From positions 55,804 to 119,803 of the forward strand of contig MU619263.1 in assembly GCA_025201805.1 (NCBI GenBank): DNA of 64,000 nt, in the 5' to 3' direction. The DNA comes from Parasitella parasitica NRRL 2501. Its lineage: Eukaryota > Fungi > Mucoromycota. The stretch's first letter is position 1. Every line of letters starts with the position of its first letter. Shown one piece after another: positions 28,116 to 40,666 of the stretch. The translations under genes and the position numbers were made by a program. The notes beneath the pieces are model-generated. The model did not search any database. It had not been told where the DNA came from and saw only the letters and a list, made by a program, of their open reading frames with translations.

Positions 28116-28774
28116 TTATGCCTCTGCTTTCTTGTTGCATAGTTTTTTTATCCCATGCTGCGGCTGTTTCACCAATAAGACTTTTTAATCACTACGTGAG
28201 TTACTTTATTCTTCTTGACAAGCGCAGGATGCTCAAATTCTTTCCATACAGTATTGTCTCTTGTCTCGACCTTTGGATTAACTACGAGAGTTGCCGCTCC
28301 ACTAGCCAAACGAGATAAAAAGTAAGCACAATACTTAGATGTGCATAATTCCATGATGCGATCAGCAATTCTTCCTCCCACAGTTCGCTCAAGAATTTGT
28401 ATATTTCAAGTTACCATTGAACATAAAGTTTTCAGCCTCTATCAGTACACTTCTTTACGGAATTTTATGTAACCACTCCAAAATACCTGATCAGGGGAAG
28501 TTGATGTCAATCTTTACTGCGAGATTGTGAGCGTGTCTACGCTATCAAATGCATTATGTTCCTTGGCGTAAAATTTTTGAGCCCTCGTTTCAGATTTTTC
28601 ATGTTATTCTTGTCTTCATCCACCAACTGAAAAGGGTCGGTTATTTCTATCGTTTCTCCTGCGCCTTGCCAGTCTTTCAGCTCTAGTTTCTTCCTGTTGT
28701 CCAAAAACTGAAGCATCTGATTCTTCCGCTTGATAGCTCTTCATACCAAAGAGAAGCTGAGCGGTGTTAGCCAT
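28116..28774 (-). pseudogene. Frameshifted full-length paralogue of the ARC/NADase-like gene at 34866-35657
   Basis: Collinear fragments FGMK..ESDA..RAERLARR, VFWSGY, AENFMFNGNLKYT.LERTVGG, ASGAATLVV, VWKEFEHPALVKKNKVTHVVIK, WDKKTM and AEA-stop(TAA)GTC match the intact copy; several stops and frameshifts. Confidence 0.85.
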
Positions 28775-30059
28775 GGCTGACACTTGGTCTCTACTCAACA
28801 CCCTATATCTGTTTGGGCAGCTCTCATTCAGACATAGATTGGAGCCATTAAGGGTCTAAATAATGTCTTGTGACGAGGCCGAAAAAATCGGTTTAAAGTT
28901 TCAGGACGTGAGGTGTCGCCAAAGAAAACATTGCCTGACGAACACCATAGACAAAAAAAAAAGATCAACGATTTCAAAATGGTCAGGCCCGAAGAGACGT
29001 CTTTCGTCTTAGGGTCGTATAATAACGATGATTGGGTAGTGCCTACATCTTTGGACCATGGACTGATGGCTAAATGCGTACATCATCTGAATTATTGTTT
29101 TTTGCTGTTTATATTTGGAAGCCAATAGATAAAGAAAAACAGAAAAACAGTTCTCATAATTAAATGTTAGCACCATTGTTCGCATAAGGATTAATTGGGA
29201 ATGCACAATAAATTTGTCACACAATTTACCTTGTCGTCTGAAATCCATTAGTGTTGGGTTTTATAGATTGCGCCATGTGATAGCTGAAAGTTATAGGTCT
29301 ATTGAAATCCGGTGAAACTCTTGGACACACACTGGACCTCGGTAAAATCAAGGGGGGCAAGCTCTGAGGATATCATTGATGGACATAGTAGACCATACAA
29401 GTTCGAATAGAATTGCTTTCCATACCGATAATTTTACTTGGACAGAGAAAGCGCAAGTGAGTAGCATCTTTTATTGTTGACATATTTAGTAGAGAGGGAA
29501 GTCTGCTACTTGAAAGCAATGTAAAAAGTCGTTTGTAGGATATTGCTCTAATAAGAGATGGGTGCTGTACGAGAGTCAGGAATAATGACCAAAATAATTT
29601 ATAAGATATAGTAGCCATAAATGATCTGGTACAAGCTTTACGAAAGGAATTTGTGGAAACAATGGTGTGAAAACCCATTTGGCCTCGTCTCGTTTATGTA
29701 GTCCAGAGTATAGCTTATATGATACCTTTTTTGCCAGAACTAGATACTAACAGAAATAATAGACTGTATGTCACTTTGGGTTAACGGCGTTGCACGCTCA
29801 ATATACCAAAATTCAGCCAGAATGAGATAATTAAGCGCTGTAGCTTTACCGACGACTGAAAAATTCGACTAGAAGTTGATCAATTTATTACGCTCATATC
29901 AATGATGGTGATATTGGCAGCATTGTACTTTTTTTTAGTTCTTCGATTTAGAATATTATGTTATGCTATGATTAGGAGTTTTTCTAAATTGGTGCTGTCG
30001 ATCTGGTATGAATTGCTGCTGTTCAATCGATATTCATAAACTATAACCATTATTTACAC

Positions 30060-31439
30060 ATGCAGTATTTAAGCTGTGTTCCATTTGAAATTCTGCTCAA
30101 GATCCTCTCTTATTTGACATTCTCAGAGAAACTAAACTTCGCAAGTTCTTGTAAAAGATTGGAGCCCTTTATTTTGAAGGTGATCTTTATGAAGATTTCA
30201 AAGTTGAAGGTGAATGAACCTTCAAAAATTTTGTCAAACATTTCCAAGAAAGCGAGCCTCATCGAAAACAAGTGCGTCGCATGGACATATTCTACAATTC
30301 ACTTTATGTAATCAAAGCTACTGATGTAATAGCTATACCAAAGCAGCTTTCTATGCTTGAAGAACTTGGCTGGAATGATACCAAATATTGTTATGAGTCT
30401 GGTGAGTCTACTGAATTTAATGACGGTGAATATGATGGATACGATCGATTTGTCAATGAACAAAATGCAAAACACTGGGAAAATATAACTATTTTTCAAG
30501 AGCCCGACAAGTATCCATTTTAACCGTTGGAACCAGCTGAGGCTATTGAGACCCTAATGCAAGTTGTTGAGACAGCAGCTTTCAAAAGCTCCTAATCAGA
30601 AGAGACTCAAATTACGCAGGGGTGTAATGACTTTGCTTGATTTAAGCCAGCCGCATTCCAATATACAGCGACTAGATATCCTTTGTTTAGATCATATGGC
30701 CATAGGAAACTCTGATGGAGAGCATAACCTTTTAGTCTCGCACAGTATTAATGGGTCGACGAAGCTTCAGATTACCAACTATTCGCAGCAATACACTGAA
30801 ACCCTACTGAATCAGATTGCTGGAAAGAACCTAGATTTGGAAATCTTGAAAATTCACCACAAGAATGAACACAATGAGACGCATGATGAAGATCCGTTGA
30901 TCAAACGTTGTTTCCCATTGCCCTCATCTCGAGACTCCGGATGTCGGCATACATTCAGAAAAGCCAATAACACCAATAATTATGGAAGCAATAGATGCAA
31001 GTAAAGCCAAATCGAAAAAGACTATGAAAAAGATTCTTCGACATTATAACCCTTTTATGCAAATTAAGAAAGCTAACTTGCATGCAAACAAAAAAAAAAA
31101 AATTCTGTTCAGATTTATTGCATCCCAAAAAAACTGAAATTGTACGGTTTTTCAAATATTTGCCCTAAACTCAAGCATTTGGAAGTGAATGGTATGCACG
31201 ATGATTTTAACTGTGCTCCAGTATTCCCTATCACTGGATTTCTGAGGAAACTTCACTGTTTGGAAACAATCACACTAGAAAAATGGAAAATTCATTTTGT
31301 ATCTATCTGTAAATTCTATAATGAAGATTGTGTCTGGTCACAGAAATTTCGAGAGTTTATGTCGTTTATTTCGAAAAAATGTCCTGAGCTACCTAAAATA
31401 AGAGTTGGCTCTAATCACAAGTTAAGTCTGCAAGATTGA
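30060..31439 (+). pseudogene. F-box (plus LRR-like) protein pseudogene
   Basis: N-terminal F-box LSCVPFEILLKILSYLTFSEKLNFASSCKRL; LRR-like segments (APNQKRLKL, CPKLKHLEV, KKCPELPKI) are split over four frames with no clean splice sites. Confidence 0.7.
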
Positions 31440-32998
31440 GTTTCTTAACCATGGCTTTGTATGTATCGCAATGAACCACCAGTATCTAGCAATAACTGAT
31501 AATCACTTAATGATGTATATAAAGGTCAATGGGTTCTTAGTCTTTAGACAATTTGTCTAGATCAATCTGTTCTCAAATATAAAACCTATGCTATCTTATG
31601 ATTGAAGCTTATGAACGTAATATATGCCATTTTATAATAAAATTATGCGTATCAAATCTCGTTGTTAGCGCTGTATATGGCAAATAAGAAATGAATTACA
31701 CAAATGATATTGCATCTGAAAATGTGAATAAGCTAACTGCTCAACTCGAGAAACATCGGCAGCTAGCATTTTTATTACCATGAACTAGTTTTTAGTCAGA
31801 AAATCAACTAGTTGCTAGATAACATTGTTTTTAAGCTACCGCACAAGCAAGTTGATGTGTCAGTAATGGCTGTATCACCAAGATTGCATACATAAATACC
31901 TTTTCATGGCTGAAGTTTTTAGATGCTTATTTCCCTCGATCTGTTGATACAAAGAGTAATAGTCGGATCGAATACACGCCCTCTTGACACACTTTTGAAG
32001 TGTCAAGTAAAAGTAAGCAATGCTTTCATTAAACAGAACAAAATATTAAAACAAAGTGATTTACATTTTTCAAATTTCGGCAAACACTAGATATACCTTC
32101 TGTACAAACTGGGTCAATATGATACAAAAACTCAAAGTATTAACGGATTGATATCAGTAACGGTATTAATAGCAAAAGTCTCAGAATAAGCTGTTGCGAA
32201 GGCAGCCGATAATTCAAAGAGTTACAATATGTAGCTTTTTTGTTATTTTATTGTCCCTCTACACTAGGCTCTCTATATGGCATATGAGTTGTGAATAATG
32301 AAATAACCTGCTACCTTGTCAGCGAGTAGATTATTACCAGAAAAATGCACCATATGTCAATTGTGAGATTAGGAAGCATGAGTGTCTAAGACGGCATCAA
32401 GTGACACATAAATGCTCAAATATACTTGCCAATGCTTTACGCGGTTATGAAAATTTATGCGTATTTTTTATTCAACGTATGAAATAACTCGACATCGTTT
32501 AAAATGAGCACGGAAAAGGTATTAATTTGATATAAGTGGATAACGCAATGGTGTTATCTGTGAAGAAGTTGCAGCAATCTTCTTACTGTGCCGTGTTTAG
32601 TATATCACATCTATGCATATATGTAGATCTTTATTATCAACGATACAAACAATATACTGATTTCAAAATAGCACAAAGCTATTCTGATGAAATTCGGGAA
32701 CTGCTCAAGCCGCCAACATTCACTTCAATATATCTTATTACTTATATTGATAGGGTATGCGTTTTAAGATATTACCAGCTATGCAAAATATATGATGGCA
32801 ATTCAAGAACCAAGGTCATATGCTGATGCCGTGCATGACAGAGAAAACGCAAGTCAGAAACAAACACTCAGATGTTCAGCTTTTTGTCATACAAACAAAC
32901 GTTGTTAGCAAATTAGTATCGCTGGTACTAAAGTATTTAACGCCTTTACAAAAGCTTTTTATCTTCTTCTTCTTCATTTATCTCTTTTTTTAAGCAAC

Positions 32999-34086
<1,088 letters not shown>

Positions 34087-34865
34087 ATTGACTCAAATCG
34101 CACTACTACATAATTACAAATAATTTTGAAAATCCTAATAAACAATAAGACACAATGACTCTAATAGGTATTTGGCTTTTCTAGTTGGATAATTTTCAGC
34201 AAATCGAGATGACACTGCACACGTTGGCATTAAAAAAAAAAAAAAAAAAAAATAAGCAGAAGTGTGTATATTAGACACAGGATACCATTTATGTCTTGAA
34301 TGTCAAAGCTTTTCATGGAGTATCGTGTACCATTGTTGGTCTCTGAGTAATTCTGATCTGTCATGTTATCATTCGAACAATCGTTGATGTAACAACGAGC
34401 AAATGATGGCAAGCCATTTTAAAAGACGTTCATAGTTGAACATTACATTGTCGATCTCTTTAATGTGCCTCTTTGTTGATAGAAATAATCAATGAGCGCA
34501 GTGATTGCTTGTGTTCAATCCCGGACGACTGCTGATACAAAAATAATTAGATGCAATCATCTCCAGCCATCGTTGATGGCATTCTTCATTCAACTAATCT
34601 TGGGTTCCGCTTCATTGTATGTGTTATCGATTCAATTGAATGCATTTGGCTCTGCAGCAAGGGCAAAACTCGATTTTGGTAGATTCAACTCAACAATGAA
34701 AGTAGCCAGACAATAACACTGCACTACATCAAATATGCCATTCCCTTTTTAATGAGTACCTTTGTTGTTTGATTCTCTATATAACAGGATTCTGACACAA
34801 AATACCTTTCTCTTTTCTAATTAAAAAACATACACAACTATTTTATTTATCAAAAACTACAGAAG

Positions 34866-35657
34866 ATGGATATCCCCTTGGCCCTCGGTTTAAAATACAT
34901 TAAAGAATTGTTTGAAGCTGAAAATTTGAACATCAATGAATCTGACTCAAATAATCCCAATGAAAACAAAGTTAAAGCCGAAAAATTGACAAGACGTATT
35001 GAGATGTTCAAAGAAAAACGATTTTTTACATTTGATGAGAATGTGACGCAAATTAACAAATGCAAGCAAGAACTGCAAAAGTTGGGCGCACGGGATTGGG
35101 AAACAACAAATGATTTAAGTATGATCCCAGTAACACAGCATATGCTGTCTATTTATTTAAAGCTGGGTGAAATACAGTCAATGGTTGATACGCTGGATGT
35201 TTCGACTATTAAAGATGGATCGATCTTCTGGAGTGGTTACAATGAAATTCCTTCAGAAAGTGCACAGAGGGCGGCCGAAAATTTCATGTACCATGGCGAT
35301 TTAAAATACACAAATCTCGAGAGAACATTTGGAGGAAGAGTTGTGAACGGCTGGGAGCCATTAAACAATTCCCAGTACTATAATGACTTCTGGTCTCTAT
35401 TATCTGAAAAATATGCAAAGTCTGCTAGTGGAACGGTAACTCTCGTTCTTTGTCCTGATACTATTATTTCGAGAGGGCGTGCTGTATGGAAACGTTACGA
35501 GCTTCCTGCGCTTGTCAAGAACAGCAAAGTAACACAGGTAGTAGTCAAGGGTCTAGATGGCAAGACTATTGAAATCTGGGACAAGAAAACTATGGAAAAG
35601 GAAAATGAGCGAAACATGGAAGAATTGAATCTGCAAAACAACACTGCAGAAGCATAA
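34866..35657 (+). CDS. Intronless cytosolic protein with an ADP-ribosyl cyclase/NADase (CD38/Tox-ARC-like) domain
   Basis: Motifs FWSG(121-124), TNLERTFGG (E152), FWSLLSEKYAKSASGTVTLVL (W176/S180), VWKRYELPAL (E212) mirror CD38 LWS, TLEDTL, FWKTVSRRFAEAA.DVVHVML and GSVEV. No signal peptide or TM helix; TATATAA about 85 nt upstream. Confidence 0.75.
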   Translation: MDIPLALGLKYIKELFEAENLNINESDSNNPNENKVKAEKLTRRIEMFKEKRFFTFDENVTQINKCKQELQKLGARDWETTNDLSMIPVTQHMLSIYLKLGEIQSMVDTLDVSTIKDGSIFWSGYNEIPSESAQRAAENFMYHGDLKYTNLERTFGGRVVNGWEPLNNSQYYNDFWSLLSEKYAKSASGTVTLVLCPDTIISRGRAVWKRYELPALVKNSKVTQVVVKGLDGKTIEIWDKKTMEKENERNMEELNLQNNTAEA

Positions 35658-35912
35658 GTCTTGATATGCTTAAAAATTATCCTGTCTCCGTACACAAGAT
35701 TGTCTAGGCTCATTCAGCCTTATTTATTTTCTCAATAAACTGAAATATATTTAGTCTAGTTAGAATGTCTATAATCAATGCATGTATCCACGCCAAACAT
35801 GATTTAGAGTTGAAATTACTATACCTTGATGGGAGGTTTTATTAAATATGAGAATTATAAAGTATGTTGCTAAAATGATTTGAAATACAATCTAATATAC
35901 AAGAGTAACTTA

Positions 35913-37816
35913 TCAATTGCTACCTTCATCTACAGCAGCCGCATTTTCCAAACGTTGTAGCCGAGCTTCTCTTCTGTTTTTTTCATCTTGCTTTTCTTTT
36001 ACCTCTTGCTCTTTTTCTTCTTCTGTCACTTGAGGTAATCCGAGCTGCTTCCGCAAAGCCATCAATTCTAGTCGCATTTGATTTTGCTTTTCATCCTTTC
36101 GTTTATTGTCGTTTTTCAGCCTTAAAATGTACTCATAAGAGTGCTGTAATAAAACAACTTTGCTCATTTGTTTGACATCTTTTTCTTTCAGGTTGCGCAA
36201 TGTATCTATGTCCAATGTGTTTTGGGTTTCTTCCTCCACCATCGCTTCAATAATCTCGGTACGCAATGAATCAAAGCTCTGCTTTAATGTATCACGCCGT
36301 TTCTGTTCGGCTGCCTTGTGTGCTGATCGACGATTTTCGATGCCGGACTGAATGGTGGTGTTGAAATCGATGCCTAAACTTTTGGCTTTGCCTTCTTTGA
36401 GGTTTTCATAGTTTGATTTCGATGTCAGTAGGGCTCGAGCAGTTTCTTCCTCGATAGTTGATAGCCGCTTGCCATTAGGATGCAGAGACGGAGAGATCAA
36501 GGGCTTCAGCGCTCTAGGAGATTGCTGTGGACGAGGCCCAACAGGAGATACAAGGTTGCTGTCATTGGGCGATAATCCGGGTGATGAAAATACGGCAGAG
36601 TGTTGAGATATGCGGCGACGCTTAGATGATTTACTGCTTGTGGTATCTTCAAGCATGGCAGCTGGAAGCACGGGCATGTTATCGACAGCAGCAGACGACG
36701 ATGATATAGCAGGTACGCTGGATGGAGAAGAGGTCACATTACTGCTTGCGCTGCCACCGCCAAGCTTCATTAGAAGTGAAGGAGTAGCAGGGGCAATAAA
36801 GTTACTATCAACAGTTGAATTGCTACTGCTTGCTTTCGCTGGCGCTTTGTTGACAAAAGATGTGTGTGGAGTTACAGGCTTCAAAGCTAGAGAACTTTCC
36901 GCCGGTTTTGTAGATTTTGGTATAGCGTAACTTCTTGGACTGCCATTAAACTGAGGACTCGACAAGGCAATCTTCTGCTGCAGGGCTTTTTTGGTATTCA
37001 TTTTCGTTGCATTCGTATTATCATAGCAAAAATTAACAAGAGGACTTGTGTAGCCATTTGTGCTTTTTAGAATGGGCGATGCTTTTGAAATAGCCGGTCT
37101 TAATTGATTGTGCATATTCCGAAGTTGTTGCTGTTGTCTCTCGATAAAAGCCAACTTTTGCTGCAATGTCGATTGATCTCCAATGGAAGGCGACGGATTC
37201 AAAGCAGGAGATGACAGTGGTGAAAATACATGCTCAGGATTGTTGCTCACACTACTATTTAATGCTTGATGATAATTACTAGTGGGCGCCATAGCTGGTG
37301 ATACTAATGGAGTGAAAAATTCCTAGACAAATATTGTTGGTGACAAACAACTCGTATACACAAACAAGGAAATACCTCTTCTTCTTGAAAACCTTCTAGT
37401 GGGTTATTTTGCACTGAATGTTGCATTGGCGTATGATAAGATTGAGTTATGTTGCTGTTGCTGCTGCTGCTGCTACTGTTCTGCGGTGTATTGTGCGATG
37501 CGATTTGTAGAGGAGACATGTTGAATTCTGGGTTGTGTCCTGAAAGTACGCTGCTATTCGTAAAGCTCCCTTCCTGAGCGTCAGGACTGAGCTGAGGCAT
37601 AGAAAATGATCCATGAGGATTTTGATGATGTGCTTGGTGCCGATGCGCTTGTAGATTATTGTCTGTATAGGCGCTGTTGTTACTATTTTCTCCAATAAAA
37701 TTGAAAAAGTCAATGTTGTCTTGCATTTGGTGCGTATTGCTACTATTGCTGTTTAATTGAAAATTCTGCTTAAATAAATTTCCATCATCCTGGAGGTCGA
37801 AAGAGCTAAAATTCAT
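35913..37816 (-). CDS. bHLH transcription factor, Pho4/NUC-1/PalcA-like phosphate regulator
   Basis: Two exons (intron 37323-37375). FTPLVSPAM, FSPLSSPAL, PATPSLLMKL, LLTSKSNYENLKEG and basic region RRSAHKAAEQKRRD, as in the NUC-1/Pho4 family. Confidence 0.8.
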
Positions 37817-38124
37817 CGTAAATTTTCAATGTAAACCAGAATGATTCCAAAGAGAAAATTGAAGAAGAAAAAAGGATTTTTTTAATCGAAATTGCAACAT
37901 CTAAGACATTGGAAGCCTGATCTCTAGTGCTTCGTTGATTGGTTCTTTTCGAGCGCCTGTGTCGGACATCTCCCTTTCATAATACACTGCAACTGCAAAA
38001 CAAAGATCCCAGAGAGCCTAACAAAAATAGCGCGCCAACGTTTTTCCTCTTCCTTTTCCTCTTCCTCTTCTTTCCTGACAAAATATTTATCTTGTTTCTG
38101 TGAAAAAAATCGTCCAAAAATATC

Positions 38125-39956
38125 ATGTCAGAAGCGTTTTTAGGGTTAAGAGTATTAGTTACGTTACAATCCGACGTAAGATTGGAGGGAACTGTATCTC
38201 ACATTGAATCGTCAGAACAACGGATGACATTAAAAGACGGTAACATATCGCTACAAGTGCTGCATCCAGCCAACGCTAAATGCATTGATTAGTAACATTG
38301 TTCTTTCTCGGTCAACCGCCGCATTACACATTTGTCTATGGTATTGTTGGTGAAGACGTCAAGGATCTTCAAATCCTATCAGCAGCGCCAAATAGCCAGA
38401 AACAGCAAACAACTGTAAATCCCAACCTGTTTCGAGATTTGGATAACCATATTCTTGAAAATTTACCACCATCTACTCCCCAACAACAGCAAGACCAATA
38501 CTCTGAAAAGGTAATAACTAGCTTACGAAACATGTGATGAACGCTTAATCACTCCAGGTTTACTTCAGATACTGACACCTGTAAAATCCATATCGAAAAG
38601 TAAAGCAAAGATGAACTTCAATATAGACATTGCATTAATAAAGTAGGATAGATCGAAAATCTAAACAACAACCACAACAACAACAACAGCAACAACAGCA
38701 ACAGCAGCAACAGCAGCAACAGCAGCAACAGCAGCAACAACAACAGCAGCATTCTTGTCGTAAAAGAAATTCTGATGGTTGGGCTGGTGAGGACGTAGAT
38801 ATTTTTCGAGAGGAGGAATTCGATTTTCAAAAGAACCTGGACATGTTTGATAAAGCAAAAGTGTTTGCCGAGATTAGAGTATGTATTTCGCCGTAGTAAC
38901 ATGATCACCCTGACTTATTTGAGACAGGAATCGGACGAAACGGCCCCAGAAGAATTGCTCGTTACTTTGAATAGATTGCCGCAAAAGAAGATCAACTTGC
39001 TACCTTCTGAGAATGTGTTGGATATTGAAAAATCCTCTTTTAATAGCGAAGATGAGGAAGAAAAGAGAGAAGAAGACGACGACGGCGAATTGGGCGACGA
39101 GAGCGATAACGATTCTCAGACTCCTGATGAATTTACAAGGAGGATCAAGCAAACGTCTCACCCATTGAAGAGAATGGGCACTAAATTCGCAAGCATTGTC
39201 ACCGCCACAGGAGGTATAGCATGTCCCTCTGTGTCTCCCTTACAAATGGCTCATGTAGAACATGAATGTGATCAAGTTTCAAGCTCATTTGGCGAGCTGG
39301 CTATTGAAAATGGCGGAAGGGGTGCCTCTCTTTTGGTTTTGCAGGCATTGAGCAAAATGGATGTTGTTTCTCCTTCCATTCTCATATTAGCTGGTAATAA
39401 CAAAAATGGTGCACTAGGTCTAGTCGCTGCTCGCCATTTAATCAACCACGGTTGCCTAGTGACAGTTTGTATAACGGCAAGAAGAGAAGACTTATGTGAT
39501 GCTGTGGTGGGGTATGAGGCTATGGCAAGTCGATTTGGTGTCATTGTCACTTTTGATACTATCGATTTAGGCGAGACAGATTTGGTAGTGGATGCCATTC
39601 TAGGTGTGGATGACAAGCTGATCGACATACAAGATCAGTCTACCTACCAAATTGTGTGCAATACAATCGAATGGACTAATCGACAAGCAAAACCCGTGCT
39701 CTCAATTGATTTCCCTAGTGGTGTTGACGCAAGTACGGGTATTCCTCATCACCCAGAGTACACTATCCACCCCAAATGGACTATTTGCTTGGGCGCACCT
39801 AAAACTGGCTGTAAATCTACAAATATTACTGGCGACCTATACCTTGTAGACATTGGTGTGCCTCGTTTATGCTGGAAGCGTGCTGGGATTAAGGGAAATA
39901 CAATCCCTTGGGGTGCCGATTTTTTAGTGGCATTACAATATGATACAATCTACTAG
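38125..39956 (+). CDS. EDC3: Enhancer of mRNA decapping Edc3 (LSm + FDF + YjeF_N)
   Basis: LSm N-terminus FLGLRVLVTLQSD..LEGTVSHI, polyQ, EFDFQKNLDMFDKAKVFAEIR FDF motif, YjeF_N domain (GNNKNGALGL.AARHL, LSIDFPSG, LYLVDIG). Confidence 0.92.
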
Positions 39957-40186
39957 TAGTACTTGTTTTGCCTAATTTATTGTGAATTTATCCCATAGAT
40001 CTTTTAGCCTTTAATTTCGTTGATCAGTGTTAACATGCAATAAAAAAAGAGAAGATTAAAAGAAAAACTATTTTAGTATTGTATGTATTCGTTTGATTTT
40101 GTTAGACTTCATTAATATCTAAGAAGCGTTGGTGAGACCAAACTTCCTGCAAATTTGCGCTATGACAAGGTTTACCCATAAGAGTA

Positions 40187-40666
40187 CAGTAGCCGCTCGA
40201 TTTAAGGCTGTTCGATATAAGGCTATTCATGATATAAGGCTACAATTTTTTTGAATTTTTTTTTTAAGCAGGGAGTTAGCCTTATTAGCCTTATTCGATA
40301 TAAGGCTGAAAATTTTCGAAATTTTAGCCTTATTTTACAGTAAATTGACGGTATTTAAATTTGTGTTGTGTTGAAAACTGAGCATTATGCTACAGATTTC
40401 GTACTTTTGCTCGATAGTGAGACGCTCTCTTGATTGTTGATTAATGCTCATAATATAATTGTTTGTCAAAATATGCTTTTTTAAGAATAAAGAAGTAAAT
40501 GGATTTGACTGGACATGTGTCAAATTAATCTAATAGCTGTAGTACCGTATCAACTATGCCGGTGACTGTTTTAAGAGTAATAGTCACATGCACGATATAA
40601 GGCTATGTTCGATATAAGGCTAAAAAAAGCTTGCAAAAAAAGTAGCCTTAAATCGAGCGACTACTG
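40187..40666. mobile_element. 480-bp non-autonomous pogo/Tigger (Tc1/mariner superfamily) element / MITE
   Basis: Terminal inverted repeats CAGTAG(C/T)CGCTCGATTTAAGGCT; TA duplications at 40185-86 and 40667-68; repeated subterminal GATATAAGGCT motifs; internal minus-strand fragment MSINQQSRERLTIEQKYEIC resembles a CENP-B/pogo N-terminal HTH. Confidence 0.9.

Follow-up and report, generated by a model that had tools for sequence, protein, structure and literature searches.

An ARC-fold gene of bacterial toxin type in the fusion mycoparasite Parasitella parasitica: a candidate cytosolic NADase

Introduction

Why should a fungus that parasitizes other moulds carry an intact gene of the kind that bacteria use as a toxin, stripped of the modules that accompany it in bacteria? 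The question arises from a 64,000-nucleotide stretch of Parasitella parasitica NRRL 2501 (contig MU619263.1, positions 55,804 to 119,803 of the forward strand; hereafter, the window). An open reading frame (ORF) of 263 amino acids (aa) in this window encodes P0001, a protein with the ADP-ribosyl cyclase (ARC) fold of animal CD38 and of bacterial polymorphic toxins. P. parasitica fuses spatially limited hyphal-tip structures with its host mould, and organelles pass one way, into the host (PMC4241652). We propose, at a probability of about 0.4, that the ARC gene is a bacterial toxin domain kept as a cytosolic NAD-hydrolysing enzyme (NADase) and used as a weapon in conflict between fungi.

Results

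P0001 is an ARC-fold protein with a complete toxin-type active site

P0001 is a real, conserved member of the ARC/CD38 superfamily. The protein scores 29.2 bits in Pfam family PF02267 (ADP-ribosyl cyclase), where the cutoff is 25 (E 7e-7). The profile of its family matches ARCtox from Pantoea ananatis (9RO8; PMC12605009) at E 1e-32 and Aplysia cyclase at 2e-16. WD40 matches in the profile-to-structure comparison were repeat artefacts, and scans of NCBIfam, PADLOC and PHROGs returned nothing meaningful. An AlphaFold2 model built from a 93-row alignment has a mean pLDDT of 81.6 and a pTM of 0.73, with residues 91-263 mostly above 90 and residues 1-80 at only 43-78. Foldseek ranked 9RO8 first (E 2e-6), followed by Tac1 from Streptococcus parasanguinis (9OUF, E 5e-6; PMC12356396) and then by Aplysia cyclase, CD157 and CD38. 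VIA gave Z 10.8 against 9RO8 (rmsd, root-mean-square deviation, 3.5; 129 residues aligned) and Z 9.6-10.5 against the animal ARC enzymes, with everything else at or below 7.0; rows 2-4 of its ranking belong to the ARC family throughout. A first-pass annotation, made from the letters of the window, had already named this fold and suggested a search with a predicted structure as a check. The ORF, the motifs that it quoted and the residues W122, S123, E152, W176, S180 and E212 are all where it placed them.

W122, E152, W176 and E212 of P0001 appear, by alignment, to correspond to W273, E299, W323 and E356 of ARCtox, substitution of any of which abolishes toxicity in E. coli (PMC12605009). The second Trp follows the second Glu at +24, as in ARCtox and Tac1. 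Hydrolysis of a cyclic ADP-ribose (cADPR) intermediate depends in Tac1 on the second Glu; the non-toxic enzyme Nac1 has Ala at this site and hence releases cADPR (PMC12356396). Since E152 is kept, linear ADP-ribose (ADPR), and not cADPR, is the predicted product. By analogy with Tac1 and ARCtox, E212 would attack NAD(P)+ stacked on W122 and W176, and E152 would drive hydrolysis, leading to NAD depletion. On these grounds, P0001 is very probably an active NADase. The first-pass annotation had left the choice between an NADase and a producer of cADPR-type messengers; E152 favours the NAD(P)+ hydrolase, and the second branch becomes less likely.

The ARC domain is preceded by a helical segment that was initially put at about 110 residues. 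A separate N-terminal part exists, but only some 85 residues belong to it, as residues 86-110 form a gap-free alignment with the pre-core helices of the closest bacterial toxins and, in structural comparison, Aplysia cyclase and CD157 align from residue 75-76 on. No family matched this leader (residues 1-85) in profile scans. P0001 has two Cys in all, and its top 19-residue hydropathy window reaches 0.9. The hydropathy scan thus detected no signal-peptide-like stretch and no hydrophobic anchor, in agreement with the earlier claim that a signal peptide is absent.

Closest relatives in Parasitella and in bacterial toxins

Word searches spanned protein lengths of 144-461 and 30-95 aa. Three of 455 candidates were confirmed: the query and two proteins of P. 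parasitica (Mucoraceae), P0002 (260 aa, 78% identical to P0001) and P0003 (175 aa, 75% identical, beginning at the equivalent of M86). The search among short proteins (30-95 aa) confirmed 0 of 26 candidates. Reading frame and active site are intact in both relatives. P0001 and P0002 share 119 of 132 residues in the core (109-240; 90%) and 55 of 85 in the leader (65%; Fisher p 8e-6), while the P0003 core is equally far from both (102/132 and 105/132 identical, respectively).

A hidden Markov model (HMM) search gave 120 matches in 1.84 billion representatives, a library whose clustering at 50% would hide close fungal relatives. The organisms of 20 matches were looked up and include Simiduia (2), Massilia and, far down the list, two basidiomycetes. 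PAAR or PAAR-like, RHS, DUF6861 and haemagglutinin carrier domains were found among 33 matches scanned; on the strength of such carriers, the matches without an organism name are read, by inference, as bacterial. The best bacterial identity to P0001 is that of P0004 (41% over 155 aa). Outside Parasitella, the closest relatives thus appear to be bacterial polymorphic toxins, in line with the "bacterial-style" domain of the first-pass annotation. Scans for the nearest bacterial loci gave 70 and 153 pattern matches in GTDB, none of them confirmed, and in JGI metagenomes 126 unconfirmed matches in one scan and none in another. The ARC protein was not found in viral contigs, and plasmids and phages held no match to P0001; plasmids searched with P0008 gave three weak matches.

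Weapon, self-directed killer or signalling enzyme

P0001 is predicted to work like a Tox-ARC toxin without being part of a polymorphic toxin system, there being neither a carrier nor an adjacent immunity gene. The absence of a secretion signal would fit an enzyme made in the tip that fuses with the host: fusion would replace secretion. ARCtox inhibits yeast from the cytosol (PMC12605009). The path to the present gene may have involved loss of a bacterial carrier (PAAR, RHS or haemagglutinin) and of the immunity gene, and gain of the 85-residue helical leader. In the most speculative steps of the scheme, the delimited hyphal tip of the parasite would merge with the host hypha and the cytosolic enzyme would drain host NAD+ locally; the parasite would be spared by low, cell-restricted expression, by the leader or by an inhibitor encoded elsewhere. 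That the enzyme has a role against the host fungus is a tentative proposal. Its fullest version is rather doubtful: here a fusion mycoparasite would have turned a bacterial type VI-class NADase toxin into an effector that lacks a secretion leader and is delivered by cell fusion, and the place of the immunity protein would have been taken by a leader or partner of fungal origin.

Several points weigh against the proposed weapon. The 90% conserved core argues against the rapid divergence of an arms race. Once the two cytoplasms are joined, the enzyme would endanger its producer as well, and the parasite is believed not to kill its host. Finally, P0018, a 57-aa fragment on an 894-nt contig, is 44% identical to the C-terminus of the fungal clade. 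Its source may be a more distant carrier, and the clade may extend beyond Parasitella.

The main rival turns the enzyme on its owner. As a cell-death or defence NADase, restrained by the leader or a partner and triggered by non-self fusion, bacteria or virus, it would kill the hyphal compartment concerned. The missing signal peptide and the strong conservation of the core suit this idea, as does the part that NAD-consuming TIR domains and related HET domains play in fungal non-self death (PMC10197012). Fusion with the hyphae of other species would presumably also oblige a parasite to wall off damage. However, profile scans of P0001 for a sensor domain (NLR, repeat or amyloid motif) found none, and the gene is found in essentially one genus. 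Taken together, we regard self-directed killing as unlikely, though worth serious consideration.

The lesser rival is a domesticated signalling or metabolic enzyme making messengers of the cADPR/ADPR type, like animal CD38 and perhaps bacterial Nac1. No immunity-like gene lies beside the ARC gene (255 bp separate it from the convergent bHLH gene, and flanking ORFs are of 74 aa or less), and the non-toxic Nac enzymes likewise lack an adjacent immunity gene (PMC12356396). Moreover, a stand-alone RyR-repeat-like gene maps 15 kb away, and isomers of cADPR are bound or cleaved by RyR-domain proteins of phages (PMC13232231). Against this, E152 is retained where Nac1 has the Ala that makes it a cADPR producer, and the RyR-like gene is not adjacent. 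A signalling role is therefore improbable.

A bacterial or an older fungal origin

Tox-ARC domains were recorded in both Ascomycota and Basidiomycota by Zhang et al. (2012), who proposed that fungi had obtained them from bacteria separately (PMC3482391; also PMC3417536); the supplements of these papers may list further fungi. The first-pass statement that no characterised enzyme of this fold was known in this fungal group agrees with the literature searched, but ARC domains of Dikarya had been on record since 2012. A search with three Dikarya-type ARC-like proteins gave 11 matches among 7,995 scored candidates; the four with names are all from Dikarya. The Dikarya proteins (Stygiomarasmius, Dendrothele, Agrocybe, Hypoxylon, Tephrocybe) resemble P0001 in being fungal, in having the ARC core with the catalytic Glu and in their proposed bacterial origin (PMC3482391). 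They differ in that none of 10 has the second Glu, Tyr or Phe frequently stands in place of the two Trp, and the N-terminus carries a hydrophobic leader (as judged by eye and hydropathy), whereas P0001, from Mucoromycota, is predicted to be cytosolic and has the full set. The W-S-E-W-S-E pattern is kept in 3/3 Parasitella-clade and 7/7 nearest toxin domains. Among the basidiomycete proteins, P0055 of Tephrocybe rancida (477 aa) looks secreted and contains three tandem ARC-like domains.

P0001 was scored against profiles made without the fungal clade. It reached 139.5 bits with the profile of the nearest seven toxins, a partly circular value since the seven were picked as top matches, then 108, 103 and 75 bits with three other bacterial-type groups and 45-68 bits with the Dikarya-like profiles. 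Trees were built from 60, 60, 32 and 30 rows, the 32-row tree without any Dikarya rows. The three Parasitella-clade rows group together in every tree (100/99). Without Dikarya rows, the clade sides with 19 PAAR/RHS-type rows against 10 others (93/86); with them, the backbone is unresolved. A shuffle test of segment homology was set aside for prior-alignment bias, as the gappy segment 1-40 also beat all 2,000 shuffles. Codon use of the ARC gene is that of the host (codon adaptation index, CAI, 0.72 versus 0.67-0.76 in eight host ORFs; GC at third codon positions, GC3, 0.39), so that any transfer must be old.

We consider it probable, from these comparisons, that the gene was transferred from bacteria separately from the Dikarya proteins. 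Horizontal acquisition as such, suggested in the first-pass annotation, is likely, but the trees leave a separate event unproven: the approximately unbiased (AU) test rejects neither a single Parasitella-Dikarya clade (p 0.244) nor a grouping of Parasitella with the nearest bacteria (p 0.463). These values weaken the case for a separate bacterial source, and so do two further results. None of the four trees nested the Parasitella clade inside the nearest bacterial group, and residues 188-218 resemble Dikarya (0.39) as much as the nearest bacteria (0.36). The gene might instead descend from an old ARC lineage of fungi that also gave rise to the secreted Dikarya proteins and disappeared from most Mucoromycota, with no separate transfer. 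Besides the AU result, the long Dikarya branch attaches near the Parasitella clade in the two 60-row trees. Yet all bacterial-type profiles score P0001 above both Dikarya profiles, the Dikarya proteins have hydrophobic leaders and lack the second Glu, and many losses would be required. Such a lineage is an improbable source.

Genomic context and a decayed second copy

The ARC gene lies between a Rab-family gene on its 5′ side (the label is our reading of the sequence) and a convergent bHLH gene on its 3′ side, in a window whose gene content and short introns we take to be Mucorales-like. The first-pass annotation had contrasted an intronless ARC gene with intron-rich neighbours. The ORF is indeed uninterrupted and the Rab-family gene does have introns, but a 2,198-codon helicase ORF, a 369-aa YjeF_N ORF and the OHCU decarboxylase ORF are uninterrupted as well. 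Lack of introns is thus no evidence of transfer, and this part of the earlier argument falls. The TATA box proposed upstream exists as a heptamer, TATATAA, and is weak evidence since TATAWAW is frequent in the window (0.14 per 150 bp).

The ARC ORF and the intron-bearing bHLH gene share a contig in two of four sequencing runs that may be the source of the window itself, and in two of four diverged runs (about 13-16% in coding DNA), where the ORF starts from the same ATG. Run X8 has cover on conserved neighbours alone and run X15 has none, which in neither case indicates that the gene is absent. The gap 3′ of the gene is shorter and diverged in other strains. Although the best matches are bacterial and a decayed copy is close by, a contaminant, endosymbiont fragment or dying gene is effectively refuted by this synteny, which ties the ORF to a fungal gene with introns in four runs including the two diverged ones, by the host-like codon use and by the intact frame and active site of P0002 and P0003. 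No run is recorded as RNA. In run X7, taken as RNA from five spliced intron joints in the neighbours, a gap-free 479-nt contig (35145-35623) falls inside the ARC ORF, with no cover at 34192-35061; its depth of 7, against 120-375 on the neighbours, cannot rank expression. The ARC gene is probably transcribed, on this run's evidence. In run X10, 1,209 of 1,212 differences across 29500-40500 of the window are C>T or G>A, as expected of a bisulfite-treated library.

An inverted paralogue lies 6 kb from the ARC gene (Table 1). Neither this copy nor the fusion lifestyle of the fungus figured in the first-pass annotation. The copy has in-frame stops, frameshifts, two deletions and an altered W176 position; over the C-terminal half, counted from the FWSG codons, 260 of 404 aligned bases match those of the ARC gene, and homology extends into the leader. 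Together with the equidistance of P0003 from P0001 and P0002, this suggests that the family duplicates and loses copies. Genes involved in conflict typically turn over, and a decayed duplicate would fit this pattern. Between the two ARC copies, an F-box gene (30060-31439, + strand; PF00646 above cutoff) is split into several ORFs and poorly conserved in the diverged runs, reflecting introns or decay.

Over 97 aa, the RyR-repeat-like protein shares 34% identity with a protein of phage origin (L001:2815-3249), itself a match to Pfam RyR below cutoff (E 8e-5). The match of the fungal protein to an animal RyR repeat is weak (E 0.01), and its Atlas neighbours are bacterial. A single-sequence model was unusable (pLDDT 44). 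The gene is possibly, from these matches, a second borrowed gene; that it was borrowed as a further component of the ADP-ribose chemistry to which the ARC gene belongs is most improbable. The phage RyR-repeat-like genes L001:2815-3249 and L002:2824-4389 each adjoin a small ORF that reads as ferritin/Dps-like.

Table 1. Features of the ARC locus and its surroundings (window coordinates)
Feature	Position	Strand	Basis
Intact ARC-fold gene (P0001)	34866..35657	+	263-aa ORF; PF02267 match; model fold; orthologue with the same start codon in diverged runs
Helical N-terminal leader specific to the lineage, residues 1-85	34866..35120	+	no Pfam match; pLDDT 43-78; 55/85 identical to P0002
ARC domain, residues 86-245, with pre-core helices and C-terminal extension common to nearest bacterial toxins	35121..35600	+	alignment; pLDDT mostly >90
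W122 (ARCtox W273)	35229..35231	+	alignment to 9RO8; numbering from PMC12605009
E152 (ARCtox E299, Tac1 E516, CD38 E146), predicted to favour hydrolysis	35319..35321	+	alignment to 9RO8
W176 (ARCtox W323, Tac1 W540)	35391..35393	+	alignment to 9RO8
E212, predicted catalytic Glu (ARCtox E356, Tac1 E573, CD38 E226)	35499..35501	+	alignment to 9RO8
TATA-like heptamer, 82 bp 5′ of ATG (weak)	34778..34784	+	letters of the window
Decayed inverted paralogue of the ARC gene	28116..28774	-	tblastn E 2e-15; inverted-repeat arms
Stand-alone RyR-repeat-like gene, about 219 aa	18836-19495	-	uninterrupted ORF; 15 kb from ARC gene

Discussion

Animal CD38 and CD157 are disulfide-bonded ectodomains with a signal or membrane anchor. 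P0001 shares the fold and the catalytic residues of these enzymes and of Aplysia cyclase (PF02267), and differs in having no disulfide set, no signal or anchor and fewer residues separating the second Glu from the second Trp. Its nearest characterised counterparts are ARCtox and Tac1 (PMC12605009, PMC12356396), with the same compact, disulfide-free core, the same W/E/W/E site and, as predicted here, a cytoplasmic place of action and conversion of NAD(P)+ to ADPR. Unlike them, P0001 is the product of a eukaryotic nuclear gene, has a private 85-aa leader in place of any PAAR, LXG, RHS or CdiA carrier, lacks an adjacent immunity gene, and carries extra pre-core helices and a C-terminal helix common to another toxin subfamily (Simiduia, Massilia and relatives). 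Nac1 differs from P0001 at the E152 position. Characterised fungal NADases are of the TNT fold; these too are NAD(P)+ hydrolases proposed to act in biotic conflict, yet they are unrelated in fold, surface-exposed and glycosylated (PMC7955114).

In the literature searched (subscription journals being outside its scope), we found no report of an ARC-fold enzyme in Parasitella or Mucorales and no characterised fungal ARC-fold enzyme. The available text of PMC12605009 and PMC12356396 contains no word starting with "fung", and the main text of a 2026 survey of mycoparasite effectors, as far as available, contains no NAD or ADP-ribos term (PMC13188720).

The first characterisation of bacterial ARC toxins dates from 2025. 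P0001 has their full active site with neither a carrier nor an adjacent antidote gene, and seems restricted to a genus that uses cell fusion to invade its hosts. This makes it a concrete candidate effector for fusion parasitism, and raises the question of how a eukaryotic cell would tolerate in its cytosol an NADase of the type that inhibits yeast. P0001 would also add one more case, probably a separate one, of eukaryotes recruiting the CD38 fold from bacteria.
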